In this document: piece after piece, positions 1,042-38,343 of the stretch
Numbering within the stretch: position 1 is the first letter of the stretch
Layout of the letters: each line of letters begins with the position of its first letter
Assembly (NCBI GenBank): GCA_964388715.1
Contig: CAYMBN010000001.1
Span: forward strand, 200,962-264,961
DNA: 64,000 bases
Direction: 5' to 3'
Origin: an uncultured Methanosarcinales archaeon
Lineage (GTDB): Archaea; Nanobdellota; Nanobdellia; Woesearchaeales; CAYMBN01
Notes under the pieces: model-generated
Told to the model about the DNA's origin: nothing
The model's input: the letters and a program-made list of their open reading frames with translations, nothing else
Databases searched by the model: none
Position numbers and translations under genes: made by a program

Positions 1042-1146
1042 AATTAGCTGTAGTTTTGATGTATTATATAAAATTTTTCATCAACTCTTTTTCTCGACGG
1101 TAAAATAACCGAAAAGTATATAAACTACATAGTGCCTAATAGAGTT

Positions 1147-18334: not shown

Positions 18335-18430
18335 TAAAGTTTACAAAAGTGATTAATCCTTTATAAATGTGTCGAAATGGTGATTTTTTTGGATAAATTT
18401 TTAAAGGAATCGCTCTTTTTTTGTATTAAA

Positions 18431-19753
18431 ATGTTTAAATTCCTAAAAGAAAAACTGAAGAAAGGACTTGATCTATTTAGTAAGAAGGTTGAAGAAGATG
18501 TTGTTAGTGAGGAAGTTGTTGAAGAAAAGGTTGAAGAAGTTAAAGTTGAAGAGAAAAAGGTTGTTGAGGAGTTTAAAGATAGGATTCCTACTGCTTATGA
18601 ACTAGCGCAACGTAAGAAAAAGAAAGAAGTTGAAGAGAAAAAGGAAGAAGTGATTGAAGAGCTTGAACCTGAACCTGAGGTTGAAGTGGAGGAGAAAAAA
18701 CCTAGTGCTGCTGAGTTATTAAAGCAGGTTGATGAAAAACCTCAAGTAAAGATTCCTACTGCTGCTGAAATACTTGATCAAGCTGTTGAAGAAAAAGAAA
18801 AGTTGGAGAAGAGAATACCAACTGCAAGAGAAGTTGTTGAAAAATTAAGAGAAGAGAAAAAAGAGCCTGAGAAAAAAGGGTTTTTTGGGAAATTAAAAGA
18901 TAAGATTGTTACTAAAAAGATTGATGAGAAACAGTTTGAAGAATTGTTTTGGAATCTTGAGTTAATTCTTTTGGAAAATAATGTTGCTGTTGAAGTTATT
19001 GAAAAGATTAAGAGTGATCTTAAGGAAGAACTTGTTGATAAACCTATTCAAAGAGGAAAAGTTTTGGATAGAATTTCTGGAGTTTTGAAAAACAGTGTTG
19101 AAGGATTGTTTGATGTTGAACAGTTTGATTTGTTAGAAAGAGTTAAGGTTAAGAGTCCTTTTATTATTTGTTTTGTTGGTATTAACGGTTCTGGAAAAAC
19201 AACAACTATTGCAAAGATTGCTCAGTTGTTAATGGATAATGATCTTAAATGTGTGATGGCTGCTGCTGATACGTTTAGAGCAGCTTCAATTGAACAGTTG
19301 GAAGAACATGCTAATAATTTAGGTGTTAAAGTAATTAAACATGATTATGGTAGTGATGCTGCTGCTGTTGCGTTTGATGCAGTACGTTATGCAGAATCAA
19401 AAGGTACTGATGTTGTTTTGGTTGATACAGCTGGTAGATTACAGTCAAATGTTAATTTAATGGATGAATTGAAAAAAGTTATTAGAGTTGTTAAACCTGA
19501 TTTAACATTGTTTGTTGGAGAATCTATAACTGGAAATGATTGTGTTAATCAAGCAAGAGAATTCAATGAAATTGTTGGAATTGATGGAATTATATTATCT
19601 AAAGCAGATATTGATGAGAAAGGTGGTGCTGCTATTTCAGTAAGTTATGTTACTAAGAAGCCTATATTGTTTATTGGTACAGGTCAAGAGTATAAAGATC
19701 TGAAAGAATTTAATTCTGATGTTGTGGTTGAGAGTTTAGGATTGGAAAGTTAA
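18431..19753 (+). CDS. ftsY: Signal recognition particle receptor FtsY with acidic N-terminal extension
   Basis: GINGSGKTTTIAK, DTFRAAS, DTAGR, KADIDEKGG, GTGQ. Confidence 0.97.
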   Translation: MFKFLKEKLKKGLDLFSKKVEEDVVSEEVVEEKVEEVKVEEKKVVEEFKDRIPTAYELAQRKKKKEVEEKKEEVIEELEPEPEVEVEEKKPSAAELLKQVDEKPQVKIPTAAEILDQAVEEKEKLEKRIPTAREVVEKLREEKKEPEKKGFFGKLKDKIVTKKIDEKQFEELFWNLELILLENNVAVEVIEKIKSDLKEELVDKPIQRGKVLDRISGVLKNSVEGLFDVEQFDLLERVKVKSPFIICFVGINGSGKTTTIAKIAQLLMDNDLKCVMAAADTFRAASIEQLEEHANNLGVKVIKHDYGSDAAAVAFDAVRYAESKGTDVVLVDTAGRLQSNVNLMDELKKVIRVVKPDLTLFVGESITGNDCVNQAREFNEIVGIDGIILSKADIDEKGGAAISVSYVTKKPILFIGTGQEYKDLKEFNSDVVVESLGLES

Positions 19754-20702
19754 ATTCTGTTGTTATGATTTCTAAATCTTGTAATTCTGGTACTGCATCT
19801 ACAATGTAAAGGTCTGTGATGATAGTTTTTGGTTCTGGTAACCTTTCTAAATAAATACTAAAGTCAGGGTAAAACATGACTGTTTCAGCAAATCTATCTT
19901 TAATACACTTACGCATCATTTTTTGTATAGCTTCTGGTTGATCATCAATTGTGGAATTTATCATATCTAAAAAATCCTGTATTTCCTTAGGAATCTCAGG
20001 TTCTTTTTGTAGATAAACAGTATACTTTGTTGGTTTAAAATTAGGTGGATAAAAATACAAAGGCAAGGATTCTGAAACTTGATTTGCTCTAAACCTTTCT
20101 TCATAGTATTCTTCTATTTGTTTAAGTTTGTCTCTATTCATAGGAAAACTTTCAATATTTTGAACTGCTTGTTCTAATACTGAACTAACATTTAGGTGAG
20201 GTAATTGTACTTTTGATTTTTCACCAAGTTCTTTAATTTGACGCTTTGAAATTTGAGCATGTGCAATTGTAGTCATAAGAGGTATTAAAAATTCTAAATT
20301 TTTGGGAATAGTCTTGTCAAGCAAAATAGAGGGATTACAAAATAAATATTTGACATTTCGGTAGAAATATTCTGCATCAACAAGATCTTTTATTTCTTCT
20401 TTTTCTAATTTTAATGCTGTTCTTAAAATGGTTAATGGAAGAAAAGTTGTAAAATAATCAATAGATCCAAATTCTTTTATTAAGCTTTCAGATTCATGAA
20501 AAAAATCTCTAATAGGTTGTAAGTAAGTCACAACACCTATTGTTTCAGGTAGATCTGGAACTGTCTTTCTCAGGTGCTCATAGTTAACCCTTAATTTTTC
20601 TCTGGTATTTTCACATAATCCATACATAGAACGATACATTTCTGTATTATCAAATCTAAACAAATCTGAATTCGGAGTGTATATTATGTGTATTGGTTTC
20701 AT
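19710..20702 (-). CDS. Hypothetical protein
   Basis: 330-aa ORF with AAGGTGA site; convergent overlap with ftsY. Confidence 0.7.
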   Translation of the reverse strand: MKPIHIIYTPNSDLFRFDNTEMYRSMYGLCENTREKLRVNYEHLRKTVPDLPETIGVVTYLQPIRDFFHESESLIKEFGSIDYFTTFLPLTILRTALKLEKEEIKDLVDAEYFYRNVKYLFCNPSILLDKTIPKNLEFLIPLMTTIAHAQISKRQIKELGEKSKVQLPHLNVSSVLEQAVQNIESFPMNRDKLKQIEEYYEERFRANQVSESLPLYFYPPNFKPTKYTVYLQKEPEIPKEIQDFLDMINSTIDDQPEAIQKMMRKCIKDRFAETVMFYPDFSIYLERLPEPKTIITDLYIVDAVPELQDLEIITTEFNFPILNSQPQHQN

Positions 20703-20757
20703 TTTTATTGTTAGAAATCACCTTTTTTATTGAAAATAGGAGGTTTGGTTTATAAAT

Positions 20758-21423
20758 TTATTCAAACTCAACTTTTCCTTTGTAATAAATGCCTTTATGG
20801 AGTTTGACTGGGCGCCAGTTGTCTATGATTAGGTTTGCATTGAGCCATTTAGAAAGTTCTTTTGGGTTGCCTATTGTTGCGCTTAATGCTATTATTTGTG
20901 CGTGAGGGAGGAGTTCTCTTAGGATTGTTAAGAGGATTTCTAGGGTTGGACCTCTGCTGATGTCATTTAATAAGTGGACTTCGTCAACAATTATTGTAGA
21001 AACATCTCTGAGCCATGGTGAGTGGTGGCGAATCAAGGAATCTAATTTTTCAGAAGTTGTTAGGATGAGGTCATAGTTCGCTAAGTAAGGTTCTGCACTG
21101 TCCATGTCTCCTATTGAAAGTGCGATTCTGCAGAGATGTTGGTATTTTCGTTTGAAATCTTTGAATTTTTCGTTTGCTAAGGATTTGAGTGGAACAATGT
21201 AAATGGTTTTTCCGATTCTGTTGATTATGTTTTTTAATGCAATTAGTTCTGCGATTAATGTTTTACCTGAAGCAGTTGGTGTGCAGACAAGAAGGTTTTT
21301 TTTGTCAAATAGTCCTTTGTTAATTGCTTTGGTTTGACATTTTCTTAGTTCTGCTATGTTTTCTGCTTTTAGAACTGTGTATAATTGTTCTGGGATTTGT
21401 TTTTTTATGTCTTTTAGATTCAT
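20758..21423 (-). CDS. Ski2/Hel308-like helicase N-terminal (DExH) domain only
   Basis: PTASGKT, VPLKSLANEK, DEVH, LSAT, WRPVKL; stops before the second RecA domain. Confidence 0.85.
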   Translation of the reverse strand: MNLKDIKKQIPEQLYTVLKAENIAELRKCQTKAINKGLFDKKNLLVCTPTASGKTLIAELIALKNIINRIGKTIYIVPLKSLANEKFKDFKRKYQHLCRIALSIGDMDSAEPYLANYDLILTTSEKLDSLIRHHSPWLRDVSTIIVDEVHLLNDISRGPTLEILLTILRELLPHAQIIALSATIGNPKELSKWLNANLIIDNWRPVKLHKGIYYKGKVEFE

Positions 21424-21439
21424 TTTTCTTATTAAAGGG

Positions 21440-21561
21440 CGCCGGGGGCGGGATTTTCACCCGAGGTTCAAATCAATGAAGCCAAGATATTTGAACCCGC
21501 ATGATCCGGTGAGATCACTTAGTTCTAAACTAAGCGTCATACCAAATTAGACAACCCCGGC
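21440..21561 (-). tRNA. tRNA with TAG anticodon (nominally Leu) but Ser-like body; about 36-nt T-loop intron
   Basis: GCCGGGG/CCCCGGC-G73; CTTAG-TTTAGAA-CTAAG; variable arm TGATC..GATCA; GCGGG-TTCAAA[intron]T-CCCGC. Confidence 0.85.
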
Positions 21562-21602
21562 ATTATGGAAAAGTTTAAATATGAGCTTAACTTATAATAC
21601 TT

Positions 21603-21649
21603 TGATCCGGTGGAGAGTCAAGGTACATACCAAATTAAGCGACCCTGGC
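21603..21649 (-). pseudogene. Degenerate partial copy of the adjacent tRNA
   Basis: GCCAGGGTCGCTTAATTTGGTATG...CACCGGATCA matches the 5' half and variable arm; no anticodon stem or T arm. Confidence 0.65.
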
Positions 21650-21721
21650 TTTTTTTCTTTTTTTATTATTGAATTAGAATTAGTTTATATATTTTTACCG
21701 TGTTTGTCTAGTGGGGAGTGG

Positions 21722-23809
21722 TTATTCAACATGACCATTCTTTACTTTTTCTACTGTTACTTGTTTTAGTTGGAGGTTGTTGTAGTAGACTTTACTGTCT
21801 CTTATTTTGAGTTTTATTTTTTTGAATTCCTCGAATGTTATTTCTGAGGTGTTGTTTTTTAGGTTTTCTGGGTTTATTTGAGTGCCTGGTTTTGCTTTTG
21901 TTGTTAATATCCCTACATTTTTCTTTTTGTCAATGCCTGCTAATAACATTCCTTGGCTTTCAATTCCTCTAAGTTTAGCTGGTTTTAGGTTTGTGACTAC
22001 AATTAGGTTTTTGTTTTTTAGTTGGTCTTTTGTGTAGTAACCTTTAAGTCCTGCGACAAGTTGTCGCTTTTCTTTTCCAAGGTTGACTTTTAATATATAG
22101 AGTTTGTCTGCTTTTGGATGTTGTTTTACATCTGTTATTTTTGCTACTTTTAGATTGAGTGGGAATTTTTCTGTTGTTTTTTTGCCTGCAAACATTTTTC
22201 TGAATTTTTGCATATCTTTGTCTTCGAGTTTTTGGAATAAAACCTTTGCTTTGTTGATTTTGTGTGATTTTTTTATTGAGATTTTGTTAAGGTCTTTTAA
22301 TGTAAGGTCTTTTATGTTAAGTTGTTGTTGGATTGAAGCTGATGTTTGTGGTAAGAATGGACTGATTAGGATGCTTAGGTCTTTGACTACATTGATTAAA
22401 GTGGCTATTGTGTTTGGCGCAGTGTCTTTATTTTTCCATGGTTCGTTTTCTTGGAAATATTGGTTTGCAAGTTTGCTTATTGCCATGATTTTTCTTAATG
22501 ATTCTTTAAGTTGGATCTTTGACATTAGCTCTGTTACTTTGTCTGATTCTTGTTGTACTTTTTTTAGGAATGTTTTGTCTGGTTTAAAGTTTGGAACTTG
22601 ATTGTTGAAAAATCTGTTTGTGAATGTGATTGTTCTGTTTACTAAGTTTCCAAAGTTTGCAATAAGTTCTTTATTTAATTTTGCTTGGAAATCTTCCCAA
22701 ATAAATTCTGTATCTGTTTTTTCTGGACGGTTTACAATGATGTAATAACGCCAAACATCTGCTGCAATACCTGTTGCTTTTGCATCGTCGCCAAAAACAC
22801 CGATGTTTCTTGACTTTGAGAAATGGCCTGATTCATAATTAAGGTATTCGTTAACAGAGAGTTCTCTAACTAAAGTGTAAGGATCTTTTGTTCCTATTAG
22901 GAATCCTGGGAATAAAATTGTGTGGAATGGAATGTTATCTTTGCCCATGAACTGAACTAGTTTAACATCTTTGTTGTTTTTCCACCAGTTTTGCCAGTTA
23001 GGTTTGTGTTCTTTTGTGATTCCAATGTATCCAATAGGTGCGTCAAACCATGAGTAAAATACTTTATCTTCATATCCTTTTTTTGGCACAGGTATTCCCC
23101 ATTTAAGGTCACGTGTTATGCAACGTGGTTTAATACCTTCCTTAAGCCAGGCATAAGTCATTGTTCTTGCGTTTTCTGACCAGTTTTTTTCAACTGTTTT
23201 GATCCAGGATTTTAATTGAGGTTCAAGTTTTGGTAAGTCAATGAATAAATGGTGTGTTTCTTTTACTTCTGGGGTTGAAGAGCAGATTTTGCATTTTGCG
23301 TTGATTAATTCTGTTGCATTCAATAGTTTACCACAGTGTTCGCATTGGTCACCACGTGCTTCTTTGTAATTGCAAAAAGGACATTCGCCTTCAACAAAAC
23401 GATCTGCTAGAAATTTATTGCATTTTTTACAGAATGTTTGTTCAAGTATGTCTTCTTTGATAAAACCGTTTTTGTCGAGTTTTTTGAAAATATCAATTGT
23501 AACTTCTTTATTTGGTTTAGAGCTGGTTCTTCCGAAGCAGTCAAAGTCGCAATTGAACCAATCATAGATTTCTTTTTGGAGTTTATAGTATTTATCTGTG
23601 ATTTGTCTTGGTGTGAGACCTTCTTCTAATGCTTTTGTTTCTGTTGTGGTTCCGTGTTCATCTGTTCCGCACACGCTGATAACGTTTTCTCCTTTAAGCC
23701 TGAGAAATCTAGTATAAACATCTGCACTTAGCACGCATACCATTGTTCCAAGATGTGGCAGATTGTTTACATAAGGTAATGCGCTTGTTACGAGTATTTT
23801 TTTGGTCAT
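21722..23809 (-). CDS. metG: Methionyl-tRNA synthetase with C-terminal tRNA-binding domain
   Basis: SALPYVNNLPHLG, GTDEHGT, Zn knuckle, GKDNIPFH, FSKS, C-terminal OB domain. Confidence 0.97.
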   Translation of the reverse strand: MTKKILVTSALPYVNNLPHLGTMVCVLSADVYTRFLRLKGENVISVCGTDEHGTTTETKALEEGLTPRQITDKYYKLQKEIYDWFNCDFDCFGRTSSKPNKEVTIDIFKKLDKNGFIKEDILEQTFCKKCNKFLADRFVEGECPFCNYKEARGDQCEHCGKLLNATELINAKCKICSSTPEVKETHHLFIDLPKLEPQLKSWIKTVEKNWSENARTMTYAWLKEGIKPRCITRDLKWGIPVPKKGYEDKVFYSWFDAPIGYIGITKEHKPNWQNWWKNNKDVKLVQFMGKDNIPFHTILFPGFLIGTKDPYTLVRELSVNEYLNYESGHFSKSRNIGVFGDDAKATGIAADVWRYYIIVNRPEKTDTEFIWEDFQAKLNKELIANFGNLVNRTITFTNRFFNNQVPNFKPDKTFLKKVQQESDKVTELMSKIQLKESLRKIMAISKLANQYFQENEPWKNKDTAPNTIATLINVVKDLSILISPFLPQTSASIQQQLNIKDLTLKDLNKISIKKSHKINKAKVLFQKLEDKDMQKFRKMFAGKKTTEKFPLNLKVAKITDVKQHPKADKLYILKVNLGKEKRQLVAGLKGYYTKDQLKNKNLIVVTNLKPAKLRGIESQGMLLAGIDKKKNVGILTTKAKPGTQINPENLKNNTSEITFEEFKKIKLKIRDSKVYYNNLQLKQVTVEKVKNGHVE

Positions 23810-23848
23810 ACTCTGAAGAAATGAGGTTTTTATTTATAAATGTAATGA

Positions 23849-24574
23849 TTAAATTCCTAGATATTCTACTAGTTGATTTAGGACTTTTTCAAAACGTTGG
23901 TTTACTTCATTATGAGTTATATCACAAGAAATATTTCTTAAAACATAATTCTTAGAACCTGTTCTATTAAAGTTTATGTTAACAAAATCATGGTTTATTT
24001 GTCCTGACTCATCCGGGCTGTAACAGGAATATTTTTGTACAAAACCATTCCTACTAACAAGAAAGTCTTCATCTTCAATAACATTTGGATCATTTTCTGT
24101 TCTAAATTGTAGATCATCAATGTAAAATATGTTTTGTGGTCTAGGGGATTCTTTTTTTAGTTTTGCATGATGAATCAAAACTCCATTTATAGTTTCTGTG
24201 TCAAAAGGACCACAAGCATAAATTGAAAAATATTCTTTACCAACCATAAGATCTAATTGATAACTACGCATTGTTATCCAAGCAAAAGGGCCTCTTGCTG
24301 CTTCTGCGGAAAATGTATCTTTTTTACCATTTTCAATAAAAAAATGGATTGTTTTATCTAAAGATTCTTTTACTGACGGTTTAACATCTTTTGAAATTTT
24401 TTCATCATAAGAGTAACGTAAACCAATATCATTATCAACATCTTCTTTTCTGATTATTATTCTGTACAAGAGTTTTAATTTATCAGTGAATTGTTTTTGT
24501 CTATTTGCAATTCTATGTAAAGTTTCCATTTCCTTGAAAAATTCTTTTGAAAAAGGGTTTTGGTTCATTTTCAT
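23849..24574 (-). CDS. Hypothetical protein, likely paralog of 24607-25635
   Basis: 241-aa ORF, last gene of a five-gene run. Confidence 0.7.
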   Translation of the reverse strand: MKMNQNPFSKEFFKEMETLHRIANRQKQFTDKLKLLYRIIIRKEDVDNDIGLRYSYDEKISKDVKPSVKESLDKTIHFFIENGKKDTFSAEAARGPFAWITMRSYQLDLMVGKEYFSIYACGPFDTETINGVLIHHAKLKKESPRPQNIFYIDDLQFRTENDPNVIEDEDFLVSRNGFVQKYSCYSPDESGQINHDFVNINFNRTGSKNYVLRNISCDITHNEVNQRFEKVLNQLVEYLGI

Positions 24575-24606
24575 TTTCTAGTTTTGGTTTGTTTTGTATT
24601 TTTATT

Positions 24607-25635
24607 TCACCTTATAGGAAAAGCATAACTTCTTCCTTGGGTTGTTTTTTCATTATACTTCTTAATAGATTCAGCTAAAATTAAGTCACCGGATTTTGTT
24701 CCAAACTCCCCTTCTGTTGTTTCATTATTTGTGCTAGAAAATCTTGTAACTAAATTATTTGGATTATTAAATGGTCTAAACCAATACAAACCTTGTCTAT
24801 CAAATGCCACTAATACAGTAGAGAACCTTTGTTCTGGGGAATCCCCACGCTCTCTAGTTTTACTAGAGATAGTACCAGTATCTGTATTATAAGTGATTTC
24901 ATATACCTTATATCCATATTCTTTACCAGAAATACCATTTTCTCTTAAGACTTTGGCTTCAACAAATTTGACATTTCCGTTTGGAGAACCTAACATATCT
25001 AAATTAGAGTCAAGTACTTTTTTTGTGTGTAATTTCATTAGGTGATTAATCATTTTATCAAGGTTACACTTTATTGCTTCATAAGAAACATCACCTTTTA
25101 ATACGTGAAATCCTGTTTCTCTGTTTGATAAATAACCAATCGCCCCTATTGATTGATGTTGTTTACTTAATCTGTCTGCAAACCCCATGGTTTGAATATC
25201 ATCTTTATTAGAGTTAAAATATGCCATTAAAGTACCATCAAGATTTACAAAAAAACGTTCATGTTTTGTGATGTAATCTTCTTCTTTTTCTGGTTTTCCT
25301 CCTGTAAAGATTGTAAACCAATGTTCTCTACTAAATGATATTTTTTTGTTACTAATTATTTCACAAATATCTTTTTCTGAGATTACATGATGAATTTCAA
25401 TATCATCAATTGTTCCATTTTTATCATAATCATTAGCAATTACACATAAATATTCATTCCCGTTTATAAAATCTGATGCATATTGAGATTTAGTAATATT
25501 TTTAGTTTGCTCGTTTAGTATTGAACCATTCTGCATTGCAATTCCAAATGTAAAGTTTGCAAGTTGTTGGACTATACCTGATCTTGTTACTTGTTCTAGT
25601 AATTTATTTGTTGAATTTGATTTTTGTTTTTGCAT
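24607..25635 (-). CDS. Hypothetical protein (MQKQKS start)
   Basis: AAAGGTGA site overlapping upstream stop; DYDKNG Ca-binding-like motif. Confidence 0.7.
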   Translation of the reverse strand: MQKQKSNSTNKLLEQVTRSGIVQQLANFTFGIAMQNGSILNEQTKNITKSQYASDFINGNEYLCVIANDYDKNGTIDDIEIHHVISEKDICEIISNKKISFSREHWFTIFTGGKPEKEEDYITKHERFFVNLDGTLMAYFNSNKDDIQTMGFADRLSKQHQSIGAIGYLSNRETGFHVLKGDVSYEAIKCNLDKMINHLMKLHTKKVLDSNLDMLGSPNGNVKFVEAKVLRENGISGKEYGYKVYEITYNTDTGTISSKTRERGDSPEQRFSTVLVAFDRQGLYWFRPFNNPNNLVTRFSSTNNETTEGEFGTKSGDLILAESIKKYNEKTTQGRSYAFPIR

Positions 25636-25642
25636 TTTTATT

Positions 25643-26713: not shown

Positions 26714-26732
26714 TTTTGATTTCACCTTTTGA

Positions 26733-27617: not shown

Positions 27618-27624
27618 TTTTTAA

Positions 27625-28311: not shown

Positions 28312-28442
28312 TTTTTTGATCACCTTTGGTTTTTGTTACTAGTAAGTGAGTTATCTATTTTATGTAAACTTTTTGTGTAAATGGTGTATATTTATTGAAA
28401 AGTGTAAATAAAATAGAAAGTTTTTTATATTAAAGATGTTTA

Positions 28443-29369: not shown

Positions 29370-31274
29370 ATTCTTAATATTATACATTGATTTAAAATAA
29401 GGAGTAGGATCTCTACCACGTGAAACTTCCCATGCACCAATCCTTAGATTTTCAACAAAAGCTCTTTCTAAAGTGTGTTGATAAAATTCTTCTGAGTCTA
29501 CTTCAAAGTTTTCTTCATGTTTTCTCATAGCTATATATGAATTTATGTATTGTTTTGCTGTTAATCCTTTTGTCCTTGAGTTTCTAAATACTTCTGGACT
29601 TAGTAAGAATGGTCTTGCCATGTCACAATATTCATTGCTTGGTTTAACAGAACCAAAATCTCCTAGGAATATGTGATTAAAGAAATTATCTGGTTTTGCA
29701 TCATAGTGAGCAAGTACTGTTACAATATCATCAATTTCTTTTAATTTTCTTACACATTCTTCATATTTCTTTTTTATTTCTACCATGTCACCTTTGTATT
29801 TTTTAAACACGTTATTTTGTTTTAACATTCTTTGGGCTAAAAATTCATAGTCATTAAAAGAAGCCATTTTTCCTTTTTGTACTTCTGGTGAGTTCATGTG
29901 TTTTTTCATATAAGTGTGGAATAATGATAAAACATATAATCTATGCATAATTGGGTCTGTAAAATGCTTTCTTAAGCCAAGTTCTTCAAAGGTTTTCAAT
30001 TTTTCTTCACTGAATGGGATAACCTTTTTTGATATATCTTCGTAGAGGACTAAACTATAACCATTATTTGTGATTGGTTCATTAATCAGAACATTAGGAA
30101 CATATGGTTGTAATTTTTTTATTTTTCTTGCTTCTGTTGTGATAAATATTTCTTTTTCAGCTCTTCCCTGATTTTTTGTAATCTTAAAAACATAAGCATC
30201 TTTTCCAATAATTAATCTACCAACAGCATCTGATAATGTTTTATCATTGCTAAGGTTTTGGAAGTATATTTTATCAACATGAATATTACCATCAATGCCT
30301 TGTAATGCTTCATAAACAGATTCTTGGATTATGTTAGGATCAAGTTTTTTGAATAAATCTCTTAGTATGTCTTCTAGTTCTTGATGTTCTCTAACAATAT
30401 CATCTGCTTTTCTTTTTCTGATCCATGCTCTTTCTTCTTGTCTTTTTTGATAAGGATTAGCTTCTTGAGCTGAAGGGTTATGGCAAACTGTGCCCAAAAC
30501 ACTAGCTAACAAAAAGGTGTGTTTTAGTTGAGGTATAGAAAAATCAATACCTTTAGCAAAAGTATCTTCTTCACACCATGCAGGTATTTCTTCTAGATAT
30601 GAATCTATATTACTCATAAAACTGTTGTACATTTGTTTTGCTTCATATGGATTTTTAGCAGTTAATAATGAATTAAAGTAATCCATAAATTTAAAACTAA
30701 AAGACCTACATGAATTTGACATTTGGATAAGACTTGCTACTTTATTATTTTTAATACAATATTGTTTTAATTGATTAACTTGTTTTTTTAATTTAGGAGA
30801 AGACCATTTTTTAGGAGAACCTGAATATTCTCTACCTATTTTAGAAAGTGTTGATTTAATATGCTGACTTCCTTCATCTTCTTGGTAGTACACAAAATCA
30901 TCATTAGCTGTTGTTTTATGGCTAAATAATTCTAATAAGTCAAGAGTTAAATTTTCCATGTATTTTTTATATAAAATAGGATCATAATCTATTGAATTAA
31001 TAGTTATTGAAGATCCTTGATTAAATGGGGCATTAAAACCAGAATATTTAGATCTTTGTTCCTCTGTTAAATGTACATTTGTACTAAGTTCATTTTTACT
31101 ATCAATTTTATAAACATTATTTTTAATTGAAAGTTTATCTTGAGGAAATAATGAACAATAAAATGAAGGGTTGAAAAGAGTAAATAATGATAATATAATT
31201 GGGAGAGTTTTTCTTTTAATACTCATTAAACATTTAGGAGAGTCCACTTTTTCCTCAAGTGATTTAGTTGTCAT
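29313..31274 (-). CDS. Large protein with N-terminal hydrophobic segment and C-terminal APH/choline-kinase-like domain
   Basis: YVFK...EKE, HYDAKPDN, LGDFG, EYCDMAR. Confidence 0.72.
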   Translation of the reverse strand: MTTKSLEEKVDSPKCLMSIKRKTLPIILSLFTLFNPSFYCSLFPQDKLSIKNNVYKIDSKNELSTNVHLTEEQRSKYSGFNAPFNQGSSITINSIDYDPILYKKYMENLTLDLLELFSHKTTANDDFVYYQEDEGSQHIKSTLSKIGREYSGSPKKWSSPKLKKQVNQLKQYCIKNNKVASLIQMSNSCRSFSFKFMDYFNSLLTAKNPYEAKQMYNSFMSNIDSYLEEIPAWCEEDTFAKGIDFSIPQLKHTFLLASVLGTVCHNPSAQEANPYQKRQEERAWIRKRKADDIVREHQELEDILRDLFKKLDPNIIQESVYEALQGIDGNIHVDKIYFQNLSNDKTLSDAVGRLIIGKDAYVFKITKNQGRAEKEIFITTEARKIKKLQPYVPNVLINEPITNNGYSLVLYEDISKKVIPFSEEKLKTFEELGLRKHFTDPIMHRLYVLSLFHTYMKKHMNSPEVQKGKMASFNDYEFLAQRMLKQNNVFKKYKGDMVEIKKKYEECVRKLKEIDDIVTVLAHYDAKPDNFFNHIFLGDFGSVKPSNEYCDMARPFLLSPEVFRNSRTKGLTAKQYINSYIAMRKHEENFEVDSEEFYQHTLERAFVENLRIGAWEVSRGRDPTPYFKSMYNIKNLLKNNRKLWASAKINFSH

Positions 31275-31413
31275 TGTTCTTTACCTCTTCTACTAGTTTC
31301 TTTACAGCGAATTCTACTACGTGGGATTTATTACGGAAAGAACCTGATCTGACTAGCTCTCTAATTGCATATATGGTGTCTTCTTCAAATGCAACGCTTG
31401 TCTTGTGTTTCAT
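31264..31413 (-). CDS. 49-aa ribbon-helix-helix (CopG/CdrS-like) protein
   Basis: Manual translation MKHKTSVAFEEDTIYAIRELVRSGSFRNKSHVVEFAVKKLVEE; overlaps the kinase start. Confidence 0.8.
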   Translation of the reverse strand: MKHKTSVAFEEDTIYAIRELVRSGSFRNKSHVVEFAVKKLVEEVKNNDN

Positions 31414-31572
31414 ATATACCTATAATTACCCCAAGTATTTAAATCTTTCGGTTTTTAACTACTGTTTAGTGATAAATTATAACATAATGTGTTTTAGAGG
31501 TTGTACTGTGGGAATTGATGGGTTTGGGGGGAATGAAAAACTTTAAATATTAGCACTTAAGTTGAGGTTTGT

Positions 31573-31959
31573 ATGGCACCAGATAGAGTAATACATTATG
31601 GAAAACATGTGGATAGTCTTAAAGTATATGGTACTCCTGATTTTAATCCTGCGCTGGGAGAAGCTGCTCTTTTTGCAAATGATGCTTTTGGAGATGGAAG
31701 TCATATAATTGAAGCAGAGCTTGTGCCTACAGATGGAGGACATGTTTTAGTTGAAAGAAGACATATATTTGAAGGAAATTATGTGTATACTCACACTTCA
31801 AGAGGGGTTTTTGGACCAGTTAGAAATGTTAGAGTAACACAAGATGAAGGTCTTCATATTGAAGCTGAGGTTGAACTTCCTGATGATAGAGATTCATTAG
31901 CTAAACAGGTTGATGCATTTCATAATAGAGGACGTTTAAATAATAGAGATCTAAAATAA
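31573..31959 (+). CDS. Hypothetical protein
   Basis: 128-aa ORF with GAGGT site. Confidence 0.65.
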   Translation: MAPDRVIHYGKHVDSLKVYGTPDFNPALGEAALFANDAFGDGSHIIEAELVPTDGGHVLVERRHIFEGNYVYTHTSRGVFGPVRNVRVTQDEGLHIEAEVELPDDRDSLAKQVDAFHNRGRLNNRDLK

Positions 31960-31962
31960 AAA

Positions 31963-32652
31963 TTAAACATTCATTTCAATCTCTGTTTCTGTTGTTTTGC
32001 CATCTATGTTTACTAGACGCTTTATCTTGCCTTTTCTGGTTGCCTTTAGTCTTGCTTGTGCTGGGTCGTTCTCGTATTGTTTTGGGACATCGATTTTGTC
32101 AATTATGTATGTGTGCTTGATTTCTACTGTTTTGAATTCACTGCCTGGGTTGTCAAATAAGAAGAGTTTCTTTGCTGCTTCATAGTCTTTCTTTGGAAGT
32201 TTTGCTGTTAAGAACTTTTCAACTAACTTGCCTGGTTTTGGTATTGATTTTTTTAGTTTAAGAACATAGTTAGGTGACTTTAGATTCAATAAAAGCGCGT
32301 ATTGATTGAATGCTTTTACAAATTCTTTGAATTTTGCTGGGTTTAGAGTTATGTCTATTGTGTATTTCTTGCCTGTTACTTTTTCTGGCTCAATACCTTG
32401 TGCTTGAAGTTCTGGTAAAATTTTTTTCTTTGTTACAATTACACCTTTGAGTGGGACATCTTCGTCAATAATTCCAGATAAAAAGTCAAATATTACATCA
32501 AGATATTCATGTCCTGCTTGTATTGTTACTCCTTTGCCTGTTTTTTTCATGAAGAAGGTTTCTTTTTCAAACTGACCCAAACCGTAACGGATAAACTTCT
32601 TATGTGTCCATTCATCTATGTTTTTTTCGAAAATATTTTTTATGTGGTTCAT
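31963..32652 (-). CDS. Hypothetical protein
   Basis: 229-aa ORF with GAGGTGG site. Confidence 0.75.
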   Translation of the reverse strand: MNHIKNIFEKNIDEWTHKKFIRYGLGQFEKETFFMKKTGKGVTIQAGHEYLDVIFDFLSGIIDEDVPLKGVIVTKKKILPELQAQGIEPEKVTGKKYTIDITLNPAKFKEFVKAFNQYALLLNLKSPNYVLKLKKSIPKPGKLVEKFLTAKLPKKDYEAAKKLFLFDNPGSEFKTVEIKHTYIIDKIDVPKQYENDPAQARLKATRKGKIKRLVNIDGKTTETEIEMNV

Positions 32653-32881
32653 GTGACCACCTCACAATTTTTTTCATATGTTGTTTAGCATAATGTATTC
32701 CTTCTAATCCGCTCATTAAAAAACCAAATCCTAGCATGATCCAAGTGAAAATGTATACTCCACCCCAAAATTTAACAAGTGATATGTTAGGGTAGGCAAC
32801 TGCACCTAATGCAACACTGATCCAACCAATAATGTAACTTATTAAGATTACTGCAACACCAATATGAAATAATTTCTTCAT
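32612..32881 (-). CDS. Small two-TM membrane protein
   Basis: Two hydrophobic segments; ATGA coupling to upstream gene. Confidence 0.65.
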   Translation of the reverse strand: MKKLFHIGVAVILISYIIGWISVALGAVAYPNISLVKFWGGVYIFTWIMLGFGFLMSGLEGIHYAKQHMKKIVRWSHEPHKKYFRKKHR

Positions 32882-33684
32882 AGTCTTTTCACCTCTATAC
32901 TAACTGCATCACAAAGTACTCTTATGTAACGTGGACAAAAAGTAAATTCAAGTTCTCGTTCTTCGCAATAATCAATTATCTTTTGTTTTTCTTGATCATC
33001 TTTGTATTTGATAATAACATTTATACCATTTTTATCTTTATGGATTATGTTGAAATCTTTAAGATCTGATTTAACTTTTTCAGAAACTTTCCTGAAATAT
33101 TCTTGTCGTGGTTTAACATTTTCAAGTAATTGTTTTAATTCATCAAGTTTGGTTTTGTCAAAGCTAAATTGGGAAAATTGATCTTTTATCTTGAAAAAAT
33201 CTTGATTGTTTGTTGTTATGAATCCACCATAACCAAGATTAACAGGTTTCCATTTACCAAAACTTCCTACTATTATATCTGCGTAGTTACCATCACACAT
33301 ATCTGTGGCAATTGAACCACTACAATCCATTATAACAAGACATTTACCTTTACATGTTTGGTAAATTTTTTTGAAGTCTTGTTCTGCAAAATAACCTGCA
33401 GGATTTGTATAAATTAAACAAGAAGCATTGTCTAGTTTGTTTTTCAAATCGTCAATATTAATGATACCATTATCTGTTTTTAGTTCAACAAATTTCATTC
33501 CAAGCTTTTTTGGATAGTTTTTATATGTAAGCCACCCACCTTGGTCAGGAATTAGAACATTTCCTTCTGGATTTAAACGTTTTACAATAGAAAATGCAAT
33601 ATATATTGAATTATTGCCACGGGCTGTTAATTCTACAAGTTTATGTTTAGTATATTTTTGTAATAATTCTACTACTTTTTCCAT
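32878..33684 (-). CDS. PLP-dependent transferase (DegT-like fold)
   Basis: TARGN, IPDQGGWLTY, IMDCSGS, GSFGKWKPVNLGYGG. Confidence 0.8.
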   Translation of the reverse strand: MEKVVELLQKYTKHKLVELTARGNNSIYIAFSIVKRLNPEGNVLIPDQGGWLTYKNYPKKLGMKFVELKTDNGIINIDDLKNKLDNASCLIYTNPAGYFAEQDFKKIYQTCKGKCLVIMDCSGSIATDMCDGNYADIIVGSFGKWKPVNLGYGGFITTNNQDFFKIKDQFSQFSFDKTKLDELKQLLENVKPRQEYFRKVSEKVKSDLKDFNIIHKDKNGINVIIKYKDDQEKQKIIDYCEERELEFTFCPRYIRVLCDAVSIEVKRL

Positions 33685-33779
33685 TCTAATTGATAAAAAA
33701 GGTTTTTTATTAATAAATGTTACTATGCACATAGTATAGACCATAACATTTATAAAGGGTTGATAATTTATGTAAATAA

Positions 33780-34157
33780 ATGAGGAAGATAGTGTTTGAT
33801 ACTAATTTCCTGTTGATACCTTACCAATTTAAGGTTGATATTTTTGAGGAAATAAAGCGTATAGTGCTTTTTAAATACAAATTATGTGTTTTAGATAAGA
33901 CAATTGAGGAACTTAAAAAGATTATAAAAGAGCAAAAAGGCAAGCATAAACTCGCTGCAAAACTGGGTTTAGAACTTGTAAAATCAAAACATATAAATAT
34001 TATTCATACAAAATCATTAAAAAATACTGATGATACATTAGCTGAGTTGTCAAAAAAAGGGTATATTATTGCAACTCAGGATAAAGGTTTAAAAGTTAAG
34101 ATTAAGAAAGGAAATTTAATAACATTAAGACAAAAAAAATATATTGGGGTAGGATAA
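33780..34157 (+). CDS. PIN-domain (Fcf1/Utp24-like) nuclease
   Basis: VFDTNFL, EEL, TDD, IATQD; usual position before rpoE. Confidence 0.88.
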   Translation: MRKIVFDTNFLLIPYQFKVDIFEEIKRIVLFKYKLCVLDKTIEELKKIIKEQKGKHKLAAKLGLELVKSKHINIIHTKSLKNTDDTLAELSKKGYIIATQDKGLKVKIKKGNLITLRQKKYIGVG

Positions 34158-34745
34158 ATGTTTTACAAAGCCGAAATAAAAGATCATATAAGAGTACCAC
34201 CTGTACTTTTTAGTATTCCAAAGCAAGAAGCAGTAATAAAGTGTATCAAAAAAGAATATGAAGGTTATATTTCAAAAGACCTAGGCATTGTTATTGATGT
34301 TTGTAGTGTTAGTGACATCAAAGAAGGTGTAATTATAGCAGGTGATGGTGCTTCATATTATGAAACAACATTTAATTTGCTTATTTTAAAGCCAGAAATG
34401 CAAGAGGTTTTACTTGGAAAGGTAAAGGATATTGCTGACTTTGGTGTTTTTATGGCACTAGGTCCAATAGAAGGAATGATTCATATTTCACAAGCAATGG
34501 ATGATTTTGTAAGTTTTTCAAAAGACAAAACATTGTCTGGTAAAGAATCAAAAAAGATTTTAAAGGTTGGTGATCTTTGTAAGGCAAGAGTCATTGCTGT
34601 AAGTTACAAAGACCTAACAAATCCTAAGCTTGGTTTAACAATGAGACAAGCTGGTTTAGGACGAATGGATTGGATTGAAGAAGAGTTTGCTCCAAAAAAG
34701 GAGAAAAAAGAAGTTAAAAAGAAAGAAACCAAGGGTAAAAAATAA
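34158..34745 (+). CDS. rpoE1: RNA polymerase subunit E' (Rpo7)
   Basis: IRVPP, GDGA, FGVFMALGPIEGMIHISQ, LTMRQAGLG. Confidence 0.95.
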   Translation: MFYKAEIKDHIRVPPVLFSIPKQEAVIKCIKKEYEGYISKDLGIVIDVCSVSDIKEGVIIAGDGASYYETTFNLLILKPEMQEVLLGKVKDIADFGVFMALGPIEGMIHISQAMDDFVSFSKDKTLSGKESKKILKVGDLCKARVIAVSYKDLTNPKLGLTMRQAGLGRMDWIEEEFAPKKEKKEVKKKETKGKK

Positions 34746-34746
34746 A

Positions 34747-34935
34747 ATGGTAAAGAAAAAAGTGTGTAAGAAATGTAAAATATTTGTTGATGGTAGCAAG
34801 TGTCCTATTTGTAGTGATAATCAGTTTACAACAAATTGGAAAGGACGTGTTTATATTCTTGATGCTAACAAATCAATGGTCGCAAAAAAATTAGGGATAA
34901 CTGTAAAAGGAGAGTATGCTATAAAAGCAAAATAA
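34747..34935 (+). CDS. spt4: Transcription elongation factor Spt4 (RpoE'')
   Basis: CKKC...CPIC...WKG...SMVAKKLGI...GEYA. Confidence 0.93.
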   Translation: MVKKKVCKKCKIFVDGSKCPICSDNQFTTNWKGRVYILDANKSMVAKKLGITVKGEYAIKAK

Positions 34936-34936
34936 A

Positions 34937-35344
34937 ATGCAATTAAAATTACTTGAGAAGAAAGAGAATCCTTTGTTAAGTAGGTCTGAGGTAAAGGGAG
35001 AATTAACTTTTGATGGTGCAACACCTAAAGAAGCTGATGTTAAAAAGTTGTTAGCTACCACAACAAAAAGTGATGAGAAATTAGTTAAGGTTAAAAATAT
35101 TTATACACATAATGGTCATCAAAAGGCTGATATTCATGCACATATTTATACTGATGAGAAAGTTATGAAAGAGCTTGAGAAGGAAAAGAAGAAAAAAGGA
35201 GATAAGAAAGCTCCAAAAAGTGGAGCACCAGCAGCTCCTGCTGAGCAACCTAAGAAAGAAGATAAAAAAGAAGAGGCAAAGAAAGAAGAAGATAAAAAAG
35301 AAGAGAAACCAAAAGAAAAACCTAAGAAGGAAGGTGAGAAGTAA
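34937..35344 (+). CDS. rps24e: 30S ribosomal protein eS24 with K/E-rich C-terminal extension
   Basis: [13 protein letters not shown]; conserved gene order. Confidence 0.88.
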
Positions 35345-35529
35345 TGCCAAAAAAACAAAGAAAACCAAAAAAAACAAGTTCAAAGTATAAATGTTATGAT
35401 ACTTCTTCAGGATTAAAAAGAAAAAATAAGACATGCCCAAAATGTGGTTCTGGTGTGTTCTTAGCACAACACAAGGATAGAGTTACATGTGGTCAGTGTG
35501 GTTATGCTGAATTTATGAGTAAGAAATAA
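35344..35529 (+). CDS. rps27ae: 30S ribosomal protein eS31 (S27ae)
   Basis: [24 protein letters not shown]. Confidence 0.95.
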
Positions 35530-35530
35530 T

Positions 35531-36415
35531 TTATTTTCCATCTTGTTGAAATGCTAATAAATCTTCTGTGGTTAGTTTTTGTCTTTTCTTGATCTTTTCT
35601 TCAACACCCATTTTAATATCTTCTAGTTTTTTCTCGATCTTTTTCTTTTTTTCCTGCTTTTTCTTTGTTTTTAATTTATCTATCTTTTCCTTTATTGGAG
35701 CCACTTCTATAAGTTTCTTTTTCAATTCGTTGTTTATTTCAATAAATTGTTTTTTTAGTTGTATAAATTTTTCAAGAGCTTGTTTTTCTTTTTCTCTGAG
35801 TTCATCGATTTGTTTAGAATTTTCTATTATATGTTCGTGTTTCTCCTGAGATTCTTTTGCTCTACTTTGTACTTTTTTGTGTGTTTCATCTGCTTGCTTT
35901 TTTAGTGTATCTATTTCCTTTGATAACTTTTGAATTTGTTCAAAAACAGTACTTATCACTTTTACTTCATTATATTTCTTTTTAATGGTTTTAATCTGTT
36001 TCATGATTTCTTTTTCTTTTTCAAAACTCATTGGTTGAGTTTCTATTCTTGTTTCTAGTGCTTCTATTTCTGATTTTAACTTAGAAGGATCACCTTTTAT
36101 ATTGTGTTTTTTTAGAATATCTGTTTTTTTGGTTCTAAGTTCTTTAACAGACTGAATCTTCTTTTTAATGAATTCATTAAGTTTTTTTCTTTCTCCTTTA
36201 TCTTTCTTGACTTTAGTTGTGAATGAATCTCTCTTGTTTTTACTTTGTTTTATTTCCCTGATAAGCTTAAGAATTTCTTTAGTATATTTTTCCTTTTTCT
36301 CAAACCATGATTCTTTTTGGTCATTTATTTGGTTAAGTTTAGACCTTAGACTACTAACTTCCTTCTTTTTTTGATTAAATTGGTCAAATAATTCTTTCCT
36401 CGCATTATCTTGCAT
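35531..36415 (-). CDS. Archaeal coiled-coil protein (COG1340-like)
   Basis: Continuous heptads, IETQPMSFEKEK, ADETH, KLTTEDLLAFQ. Confidence 0.75.
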   Translation of the reverse strand: MQDNARKELFDQFNQKKKEVSSLRSKLNQINDQKESWFEKKEKYTKEILKLIREIKQSKNKRDSFTTKVKKDKGERKKLNEFIKKKIQSVKELRTKKTDILKKHNIKGDPSKLKSEIEALETRIETQPMSFEKEKEIMKQIKTIKKKYNEVKVISTVFEQIQKLSKEIDTLKKQADETHKKVQSRAKESQEKHEHIIENSKQIDELREKEKQALEKFIQLKKQFIEINNELKKKLIEVAPIKEKIDKLKTKKKQEKKKKIEKKLEDIKMGVEEKIKKRQKLTTEDLLAFQQDGK

Positions 36416-36422
36416 TGTAAAA

Positions 36423-36743
36423 CTAACCAAACAAAGCGCCTAAACCAGCAGCTGCTTGTTCCTCTGATTTTTTCTCTTCTTCAGCTGCCTTTTTTTCGTC
36501 TGCTTTTTTATCTTCAGCTTTTGGTGCATCTCCACCAGCAGCAGGAGCAGCAGCGACAGCGACAGGAGTTGCAGCTTTTTCAATAGCTTCATCAATATTA
36601 ACTCCATCAAGAGCAGCAACTAAAGCTTTAATCCTAGCATCATCTACCTTGACACCAGCAGCTTCAAGTACTTTTTTTACAGAATCTTCTTTGACTTCTT
36701 TACCAGCTTTATGCAATAACATTGCAGCGTATACGTATTCCAT
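36423..36743 (-). CDS. rpl12: 50S ribosomal stalk protein P1 (L12p)
   Basis: [11 protein letters not shown]...[10 protein letters not shown]. Confidence 0.96.
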
Positions 36744-36765
36744 TTTGTTCATCCTCCAATAATTA

Positions 36766-38343
36766 TTATTTTTTTTGCTCACGTTTCTTCTTTCTTTGAA
36801 GAAGTTCGTAAGCAGTAGGAACATCATCCTTTTTCTTTTGTACTTTTTCTTTTCTAAAATCACCAACAAGTTTTTCTGCACTTATTACTTCTGGTGGTGT
36901 TTCTTTTTCTTTAAGTTGTCCATTTTTGAATGATTGTTTTGTTTTTTCAATAATTTCTTTAGCAGATGGGACAGCATCTTCTTCAACTCCTTTAAGTGCG
37001 TCTTTTACTACTTCTCTAACTTTTTCAGCTGCTTTTTCTACTTTTTGTTTGGTTTCTTCAGGAGCTTTCTTTTCTTCTTCTGCTAATTTTTCAGTAACAT
37101 CAATAACTTCATCTTGAATCTTTTTTTCTGTTTTTTTTATTTCTTCTTGAATATCTTGAACAGGTTCTGATTTTGGTGGTTGAGGTTTAGGTTCTGGTTG
37201 AGGTTTTGGTTCTGGCTGAGGTTTTTCTACTGGTTTTAGTTCTTCCTCTTGTTTTGGTTCCTCAACTTTTGGTTCTTCTTTTTTAACTTCTGGAGCCTTT
37301 GGTTCTGGCTTCTTTTCTTCTTTTACTTCTTCCTTTGGCTTTTCTTCAACTTTTGGTTCAGGTTTTGGCTCTTCAACTTTTGGTTCTGGTTGTTTAGGCA
37401 CTTCTTTTGGTTTTTCTTCTGTCTTTGGCTGTTCTGCTGGTGTTTCCTCACTCTTAGGTTCTTCCTTTGGTTTTTCTTCAGGTTTTGCTTCTTCTGGAAT
37501 ATTAGCAGCAGTCTTTAAACCATTCATTTGTAAGTGTGCTTTTTGAACCATTTCTTTAACTGTTTCACTGCAAACAATGTTTTGTTCTGTTGCAAGTGCT
37601 TTTGCATCTCTAAATGCTTTTGCAATTGAAATTTCTGTGGTCTCTTTTGTAAGATGACCAATTTCAACGCATAAGTTGATTGCTTGTGATGCAAGTTTAG
37701 TAATATTATTAATATATTCTGTCTCGTCAACAGCAAGAATGTCTTTTGTAAAGATTGAACCATCTTCATAAACAGCAACAAGGTCAAGACCTACTTCCAT
37801 TGGTTCAATTCCTAAACGAGTTAGTAATTCTGCGACCTTTGCTTGGATTATTTCTCCTTCTTTAACAACAATAGAATCAGCTTTGATAGCAACTTTACCA
37901 TTTTCAACTCCTGTTTTAATACCAAGCATGCCTAATTCACCAATAATTGGGCCTGGTGCAAATGAAGTTGGACCTGCTTTAACAGTAATGTCCCTTGGAG
38001 CTGTCTGACCTGGTTTAGCAGGAGCAGAAGATTTGTTTTTTGAAAGCATTTTGTAAAGTTTGAAAGGGTTTTCTTTTGTAAAAAGTAATGCTGGCATACC
38101 TTTAAGGTGTTCAACAAGTTTTTCAACACCTTTCTTTTTTTCTTTTGCTTTATCAAATGCGAGTTTCATAAACCTTCTTTTGGTCATTTTGATTACAACA
38201 GAGTCTCTTAACTTTTCTCTCATCTTTTGTAGTTGTTGCGCTGGCAGATTTTCCATGTTAAGAGCACCAACAATAGGATAATCTAGTATTAATTTGCTGA
38301 ATTCAGTTACAATGTCCTTTTTGTATTGTGCTGCTTCTGTCAT
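36766..38343 (-). CDS. rpl10: 50S ribosomal protein uL10 (P0) with about 240-aa Pro/Glu/Lys-rich C-terminal extension
   Basis: [34 protein letters not shown]. Confidence 0.95.

Follow-up and report, generated by a model that had tools for sequence, protein, structure and literature searches.

The gene for FtsY, the SRP (signal recognition particle) receptor, and the gene for the ribosomal stalk protein uL10 (P0) lie on opposite strands of a 64,000-nucleotide stretch of contig CAYMBN010000001.1, which comes from an uncultured archaeon of the order Woesearchaeales. We refer to this whole stretch as the window, and coordinates are those of the window unless another locus is named. Both proteins carry long charged extensions, in which a short motif recurs (hydrophobic-P-[ST]-A-x-E-[LIV]); the extension of FtsY has four copies of it and that of uL10 two. 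The FtsY gene occupies 18431..19753 of the forward strand. The open reading frame (ORF) call begins at 18377 and gives 458 residues, and the true start is probably the Met at 18431, since 28 of 30 orthologues open with the same MF.FLK.KLK helix. The Pfam domains SRP54_N and SRP54 GTPase cover residues 179-454 and leave an A domain of 160 residues, in which all four sites are placed between an N-terminal helix and the NG domain. Site 1 (18584..18628, forward strand) is of the basic “T” flavour, a capped helix followed by a Lys-rich run, and the AlphaFold2 helix begins directly after its Thr. Sites 2 (18698..18742) and 3 (18752..18796), on the same strand, are of the acidic flavour, and site 4 (18815..18859) follows them. 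Helices were likewise modelled by AlphaFold2 at sites 2, 3 and 4, that of site 3 spanning residues 111-126 with a predicted local distance difference test (pLDDT) score of about 81.

The uL10 gene (36766..38343, reverse strand) encodes 525 residues, with a conserved core that extends to about residue 282 and a long tail beyond it. The Pfam families Ribosomal_L10 and RL10P_insert match residues 5-179, and the P/E/K-rich extension amounts to 240 residues. It begins with a disordered linker (residues ~283-457, 36973..37497), which differs strongly in length (0 to ~440 residues) and sequence among relatives, and continues with three helices on the same strand. Helix 1 (36925..36972, pattern site 36928-36972) is of the “M” flavour, in which the cap is followed by ..K.K..F..G.LK. 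Helix 2 (36841..36879) has a Ser cap without Pro and aligns with the acidic flavour of relatives. The C-terminal helix 3 (36772..36822, pattern site 36778-36822) is of the “T” flavour, is nearly identical to FtsY site 1 and is the most conserved element of the tail. The GLGALFG tip of the canonical stalk is located not on uL10 but on the adjoining aP1 stalk protein (36423..36740, reverse strand, 105 residues), which retains this factor-binding tail. A mechanically called aP1 ORF (36423..36881, reverse strand, 152 residues from a GTG) extends into the end of uL10, and the actual protein most likely starts at the Met that gives 105 residues.

We compared FtsY site 1 with uL10 helix 3 over their near-identical blocks of 14 codons. 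The two blocks agree at 11 of 14 residues and at no more than 29 of 42 bases: six codons are identical, five differ synonymously and three differ non-synonymously. The five synonymous differences show that the blocks are not a recent DNA copy of each other, and as far as can be judged from the sequences their likeness points to selection at the protein level. A preliminary description of this DNA had reported the four FtsY repeats, the two uL10 sites, a uL10 with a long P/E/K linker in place of the GLGALFG tail, and near-identical blocks that differ at several synonymous sites; each of these features was found where it had been claimed.

Because both extensions are of low complexity and rich in Lys and Glu, we considered that the motif might be a chance product of such sequence, or an artefact of assembly or annotation. 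The pattern P[TS]A.E[LIVM] matched seven times in the 651,962 residues of six-frame ORFs from the whole 1.3-Mb genome; FtsY accounts for four of these matches and uL10 for two, and the seventh lies in an ORF of 1376 residues on another contig, so that the proteome scan proposed in the preliminary description returned FtsY and uL10 in six of seven cases. Each extension was then subjected to 20,000 composition-preserving shuffles, which were searched with a strict, a core and a loose pattern. With the core and loose patterns, none of the 20,000 shuffles of either extension matched the observed count, and with the strict pattern it was met in none of the FtsY shuffles and in one of the uL10 shuffles. 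Overall, 1 of 120,000 shuffles met the observed count, the mean shuffle count being 0.0002-0.013. A leave-out profile built from 59 instances in other genomes only, some of whose rows come from genomes flagged as unpublished, was run on the 9,603 ORFs of the source genome. Its top six matches were the six sites: uL10 helix 3 (24.6 bits), FtsY sites 1, 2 and 3 (22.7, 16.3 and 11.8 bits), uL10 helix 1 (10.5 bits) and FtsY site 4 (8.8 bits). The next real match scored 7.6 bits, the best match in the reversed proteome 7.1 bits and the best in the locally shuffled proteome 6.7 bits. A smaller alignment (A1), which has no rows from unpublished genomes but includes the sites of the source genome, agreed with this result. 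In the profile scans, the motif was not present in the many other K/E-rich disordered proteins of these genomes. Together with the synonymous differences between the two blocks and the recurrence of the motif in 40 further genomes in the same classes of protein, these results show that the motif is real and far beyond chance, and we regard its origin by chance or artefact as refuted.

The recurrence was examined first in the 40 closest genomes, which all belong to the same order and each represent a different family. Among 30 uL10 genes, including that of the source genome, nine have a tail that bears the motif (two of them as variants), five have a charged tail without it and two have a canonical stalk tip (GLGxLFG). 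The remaining 14 have no tail (~264-310 residues); within this one order they have lost the C-terminal factor-binding tail. In the A domain of FtsY, the strict pattern was found in 4 of 30 proteins and a variant in one more. Thus, neither of the outcomes that the preliminary description had named as fatal to its proposal was observed, namely absence of the motif from relatives and an equal frequency in low-complexity sequence. In addition to the shuffles, the relatives provide a natural negative control for the latter: the pattern is missing in 22 of 23 FtsY A domains whose uL10 lacks it or was not recovered. These 22 A domains have the same composition and are 105-346 residues long, and the exception (G027) has a uL10 with a variant of the motif. 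In the 26 genomes in which both genes were found, the pattern was present on both proteins in three, on uL10 alone in four, on FtsY alone in one and on neither in 18; the uL10 of the single FtsY-only genome has a variant. The association between the two proteins that the preliminary description had asked about is therefore present (Fisher p = 0.047, uncorrected for kinship) but modest, with both proteins carrying the pattern in 3 of 26 genomes.

To extend the survey, we built a 19-column profile (A1) from 22 instances and scanned 301 genomes of the order at E<=0.005, reading the ORF under every match and confirming the protein families by Pfam. The scan gave 62 matches in 42 of the 301 genomes; the expected number of false ones is about 1.5 (301 x 0.005). 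The carriers were uL10 (34 matches), FtsY (11), eS19 (8), eL31 (4), eS6 (2), uL22 (1) and two other proteins, so that 60 of 62 matches lie in ribosomal proteins or FtsY; the uL10 tally takes in one separate tail ORF that follows a uL10 core and one fragment assigned to uL10 solely because it resembles this tail. Of the two other proteins, one is a RimK-like ATP-grasp protein; the second, an aminotransferase, has its match within the folded domain. Sixteen of the 62 matches are training rows of the profile. Ribosomal proteins and FtsY account for 44 of the 46 new matches, and for 34 of 36 when the ten new matches from genomes flagged as unpublished (G244, G120, G207, G182, G131 and G205) are set aside. 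On the ribosomal proteins, the motif is at the C-terminus of an added tail or a few residues from it. In a wider sample of 401 good genomes across the phylum (profile A2, E<=0.001), 26 genomes matched, all of one class and 19 of them in the same order; the other seven belong to one family of another order in this class, and their carriers are uS3 and eL31. Overall, the Pfam-confirmed carriers are FtsY and six ribosomal proteins, all of them exposed to solvent: uL10, eS19, eL31, eS6, uL22 and uS3. One family (f72) includes four genomes in which the motif was found only on FtsY at the threshold used.

The uL10 tail arrangement is rare in public data: when 1.84 billion representatives were searched with a profile of 73 positions covering the whole end of the tail, no more than 18 proteins matched at E<=0.001, most of them tails of uL10 or pieces of such proteins on short contigs. 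A word-based search of proteins with this region returned 30 candidates, none of them significant. In one genome (G085), the motif-bearing tail is a separate ORF of 253 residues (L065 1492..2253, reverse strand) just past the stop codon that ends the uL10 core (2256..3053), with aP1 at 1128..1445, and a near-identical tail fragment occurs in another genome (G241, L077/L108); this arrangement could reflect a split gene, read-through or a sequencing error. Two small predicted proteins on short metagenome contigs, P0014 (86 residues) and P0017 (72 residues), contain little besides two or three motif copies. They may be fragments of genes or free peptides that act as competitors, and their genomic context was not found among the genome or metagenome contigs. 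Similar capped-helix repeats, four at the N-terminus and each after an RRRGS site, are present in a eukaryote-like cyclic-nucleotide-dependent protein kinase (P0018, 1085 residues, and P0019), where they are probably an independent invention of the same helix cap.

We next considered the structure of the element. Its consensus reads hydrophobic-P-[ST]-A-x-E-[LIV]-hydrophobic, to which the main flavour adds x-[KR]-K-K-K, and the predicted helix spans ~12-18 residues. The main, basic flavour (the cap and then hydrophobic-x-[KR]-K-K-K) is usually terminal. The same cap is found in an acidic flavour and in the longer one that ends in ..K.K..F..G.LK; some tails have a related L..L.KK.GTLR helix, and in one uL10 tail the cap and the GTLR ending are joined in a single helix. 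In 13 aligned uL10 tails, the Pro and Leu of the last helix are invariant and the linkers fail to align. The AlphaFold2 model of the last 76 residues of uL10, calculated from these 13 tails, contains three separate helices (12-24, 40-52 and 62-75) that do not pack on each other; the last has pLDDT values of 85-93, and the predicted template modelling score (pTM) is 0.27. In the model of full-length FtsY, the NG domain is confident, the N-terminus forms a helix and the A domain has four more, isolated from each other. In both models, the flanks of the helices have pLDDT values below 50. All seven predicted helices, three in the uL10 tail and four in FtsY, start one residue past Ser or Thr, so that in these models the conserved residues form a helix N-cap and the element appears self-capping and amphipathic. 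Pro, Ser/Thr, Glu and Leu are what a helix N-cap itself needs (capping box and hydrophobic staple), and such a cap would account for the sharp definition of the element. Both terms appear in PMC9959719. The motif forms a conserved island in a disordered, fast-evolving region, it occurs independently in otherwise unrelated proteins, and it is predicted to have local helix propensity without a domain fold. These are properties of a short linear motif or molecular recognition feature (MoRF). A profile search of the PDB with the motif gave nothing below E = 1, and the ESM Atlas gave no usable match.

The ideal N-cap formed by the conserved residues is also what would be expected if the motif had a structural or regulatory role without docking, either as punctuation for the start of a helix, as a site of Ser/Thr modification, or as additional sites for aP1 dimers derived from the spine helix of uL10. 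The S/T-x-x-E spacing also fits acidophilic kinases, and in its spacing the M flavour is similar to the final helix of the uL10 core. A similar helix start, P-G-A-x-E-L-L, occurs by chance in a solved HAD phosphatase, and another occurs in the class I/II aminotransferase noted above (G052, L098 820..2085, forward strand), whose basic-flavour match (E 5.7e-5, profile A2) probably reflects a helix that starts in this way by coincidence. An element with such a role would not be expected to be confined to ribosomal proteins and FtsY in 60 of 62 cases, nor to be absent from many other K/E-rich disordered proteins, and the residues past the cap are conserved across families and carrier proteins. Moreover, tips of ~10 residues are too short for an aP1 dimer. 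We therefore consider this explanation very unlikely.

Binding of lipid by the motif also appears unlikely from the sequences, because the motif lacks a face that is aromatic or broadly hydrophobic, and many of its copies are Ala-rich or acidic. The membrane-targeting sequences of Escherichia coli FtsY are an N-terminal amphipathic helix and a helix at the A-N junction, and the motif resembles them in being a short helix in the A domain. In the FtsY studied here, such elements are aromatic-rich, unlike the motif, and separate from it. One is the N-terminal amphipathic helix (18437..18499, forward strand; AlphaFold2 helix 3-23, pLDDT 85), which is likely a membrane-targeting helix and is kept across the order, with M1, F2, L5, K6 and K8 invariant or nearly so. 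The other, likely a second membrane-targeting sequence, is of the KKGFF type and lies where the A and N domains meet (18872..18904, forward strand). Across the order, FtsY combines an almost invariant N-terminal amphipathic helix with one to three such KKGFF-type elements in long acidic A domains (95-346 residues). In two orthologues, the A domain encloses a folded domain of an enzyme: a histidine phosphatase in G022 (His_Phos_1, E 7e-27; L051 580..2415, forward strand) and an HD domain in G027 (E 5e-5; L047 577..2418, forward strand).

The location and layout of the motif invite comparison with several known tethers. Like the canonical stalk tail, which is carried by aP1/P1/P2 and normally by uL10/P0, the uL10 tail consists of a flexible charged linker on a stalk protein with a short conserved helix-forming tip; the canonical tip recruits a partner to the ribosome, and 34 of the 62 matches here fall on uL10, the principal carrier. 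Unlike the canonical tail, with its C-terminal G-L-G-x-L-F-G type tip after an acidic linker, uL10 here ends in a capped basic helix rather than a hydrophobic tip, on a linker of up to ~440 residues, and the motif is present also on small-subunit and exit-side proteins and on FtsY. This spread of carriers makes it unlikely, as we infer, that the partner is a translational GTPase such as aEF1A, aEF2 or aIF5B. The M and G flavours (..F..G.LKK and L.KK.GTLR) resemble the layout of WH2/beta-thymosin peptides, which are disordered actin-binding peptides with an N-capped amphipathic helix and then a basic L-K-K-type stretch, sometimes in tandem. In this comparison, made at the level of general layout, the spacing is off by one to five residues, and no actin was found in the source genome. 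The resemblance most probably reflects convergence towards a favourable cap.

Closer parallels are found in protein targeting. In the alpha subunit of the eukaryotic SRP receptor (SR-alpha), the disordered linker between the membrane anchor and the NG domain contains short elements (MoRF, CBR and ribosome-binding region, RBR), and according to the accessible text of PMC6781444, the MoRF acts in the ribosome-dependent assembly of SRP with its receptor and speeds this assembly. The four FtsY sites share this location, in a disordered linker N-terminal to the NG domain. Unlike the MoRF, for which the same text gives conserved R, W, L and Y, the consensus here has no W or conserved R-W pair, and the element is fourfold and common to ribosomal proteins, a sharing that the accessible text does not report for the SR-alpha MoRF. 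A second parallel is the UBA domain of NAC-alpha (NAC for nascent polypeptide-associated complex), which, in the accessible part of PMC12716357 and its reference 47, is flexibly tethered to the ribosome, recruits SRP via the SRP54 NG domain and competes with the receptor for a shared site, the same logic of handover that we propose below. This UBA is described there as a folded three-helix domain on a separate factor; here, the motif is on the ribosomal proteins themselves. Finally, for one archaeal FtsY, the A domain has been reported to aid SRP54 binding (bioRxiv 10.1101/2022.04.13.488184, as far as its accessible text goes).

Taken together, on balance we favour the interpretation that the motif is a helix that folds on binding and docks both ribosomes and the SRP receptor to one conserved candidate partner. 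The helix would fold into a groove of this partner, and the tails of the ribosome would work like fishing lines, in the way of the canonical stalk tail with GTPases. With the same helix present on FtsY and on the ribosome, both would bind the same site of the partner, and would either be held together on it or hand it over by competition. FtsY is the only non-ribosomal family of carriers, and this favours a partner in the targeting machinery, most plausibly a universal factor for co-translational targeting, namely SRP54 or SRP RNA, the translocon SecY, or NAC. The motif is present even in a genome of ~0.6 Mb (G017, the smallest among the carriers), which suggests that the partner is probably a core protein or RNA. 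The carriers are located on the stalk, on the head and body of the small subunit and on the exit side of the large subunit, and their tails are as short as ~55 residues; since they lie all around the ribosome, the partner is probably diffusible or on a surface, rather than a fixed ribosomal site reached by a specific contact at the tunnel exit. The preliminary description had proposed that FtsY and uL10 tether to a common partner or surface, or self-associate, and so hold ribosomes at the site of translocation. This proposal is supported in part: its idea of a common partner is strengthened by the presence of the same helix on eS19, eL31, eS6, uL22 and uS3 and by the confinement of 60 of 62 matches to ribosomal proteins and FtsY.

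The basic flavour raises the alternative that the motif is an RNA-binding helix, in which the capped Lys-rich helix grips the phosphate backbone of rRNA or SRP RNA. The tails of ribosomal proteins would then be additional anchors on rRNA or holders of SRP RNA, and FtsY would have an electrostatic tether to SRP RNA or the ribosome, like the Lys-rich ribosome-binding region of SR-alpha. The main flavour does end in a run of three to five Lys or Arg, the carriers are all RNA-associated proteins, and the N-terminus of a helix directs its dipole at phosphates. In addition, the charged RBR segment of SR-alpha contributes to 80S binding (accessible text of PMC6781444). However, many of the C-terminal copies on eL31, eS19 and eS6 are Ala-rich and have two or three Lys together with Glu and a net charge of about +1, and the acidic flavour cannot bind RNA. 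Tails of 55-440 residues all around the ribosome cannot reach one rRNA site, and non-specific RNA binding does not need an invariant A, E and L. We regard binding to RNA as unlikely.

The existence of basic and acidic flavours with equal hydrophobic spacing on both proteins also suggests an arrangement without a third partner, in which the helices are the stickers of sticker-and-spacer tails and basic ones pair with acidic ones. The FtsY A domain would then associate directly with the tail of uL10, or each with itself, and ribosomes would be clustered with the receptor at the membrane. Self-association was among the options of the preliminary description. The sites are multivalent, with four in FtsY and two to five in uL10 tails, and the linkers are polyampholytes. 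Against such pairing stand the single, weakly charged tips on eL31, eS6, uL22 and uS3 and the four f72 genomes with the motif only on FtsY at the threshold used; furthermore, stable pairing would need helices longer than these two to three turns. We consider this arrangement distinctly unlikely.

We then turned to possible partners of the docking helix. A complex prediction with SRP54 of the source genome (alignment of 29) and the last 76 residues of uL10 (alignment of 13), run without controls, gave scores of 0.00 and 0.00 compared with a mark of 0.32 and weighs neither for nor against SRP54. Hsp70 was found in 275 of the 301 genomes, but it was not found in a carrier genome that is 98% complete and has the motif on uL10 and eL31 (G017), nor in G120 and G140, and it was rejected. 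Actin or MreB was rejected as well, as the Pfam family Actin had no match in the source genome at E<=0.01 and the MreB profile matched only the Hsp70 gene.

Several observations weigh against the docking interpretation. No column of SRP54 or of the FtsY NG domain separates motif-bearing from motif-free genomes after correction for multiple tests; before correction, the best columns had p = 0.0025 (SRP54, ~450 columns) and p = 0.0004 (FtsY NG, ~290 columns). Loss of the NAC UBA does not correlate with the motif, since full-length NAC with its UBA is present in 40 of 41 relatives regardless of the motif, and neither does an altered tetraloop in SRP RNA, since that of the source genome retains GGAA. 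The co-occurrence of the motif on uL10 and FtsY is modest or weak, and FtsY holds only 11 of 62 matches. The carriers are scattered in a poorly resolved SRP54 tree (6 changes compared with 7.2 in shuffles; a quick tree with 17 of 27 branches open, compatible with one origin of the tails or with many), a scatter that would call for many gains or losses. Because Pro, Ser/Thr, Glu and Leu serve the N-cap, part of the conservation of the motif may reflect helix formation rather than recognition of a partner. In addition, the residues past the cap differ between the basic, acidic and K.K..F..G.LK flavours, which may mean that there is more than one partner.

The SRP of the source genome itself appears pared down. 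The Pfam profile of SRP19 matched nothing in this genome and five relatives (6 of 6, carriers and non-carriers alike), and so is uninformative as a correlate of the motif. The SRP RNA (C12:8212-8485; L110 1501..1774) is without 40 model positions of the helix 6 region, and its Alu part and the GGAA loop of helix 8 are kept. The non-detection of SRP19 together with the missing helix 6 region suggests, at the level of sequence, that SRP is reduced in this order.

A more specific form of the docking interpretation is possible, and we put it forward only tentatively. In a subset of DPANN archaea, the ribosome might extend fishing lines from up to six ribosomal proteins, with a helix of the SRP-receptor type at their tips and a shared site on SRP or the translocon. 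The targeting machinery might thereby be concentrated in advance on every ribosome and be handed to FtsY by direct competition. Such a coupling by competition and handover would be a protein-motif solution that has not been seen in any studied organism, and it would occur in a lineage whose SRP appears to lack SRP19 and helix 6 of the RNA.

No description of the motif was found in open-access papers and bioRxiv preprints on extensions of DPANN ribosomal proteins, the archaeal FtsY A domain or the stalk of Woesearchaeota. The motif appears to be new in its sequence, in its distribution over many ribosomal proteins and in being common to them and FtsY. Flexible stalk tails with a tip and the MoRF in the SR-alpha linker are already known in principle. 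The encounter of ribosome, SRP, receptor and translocon has been worked out in detail for no more than a few model organisms, and in each of them flexible tethers do part of the coupling, such as the stalk tails, the SR-alpha MoRF and the NAC UBA. Here, one short helix joins the receptor and many ribosomal tails in uncultivated, genome-reduced archaea with a pared-down SRP. If all these helices dock to one partner, they would represent a new recruitment code for the archaeal ribosome and would provide, as a directly testable peptide, a probe of the targeting machinery in unculturable organisms. The tails also indicate that ribosomal proteins can quickly gain and lose long extensions with a tip, ranging from none to ~440 residues within one order, and this rapid turnover bears on the evolution of the eukaryote-like extensions of ribosomal proteins.

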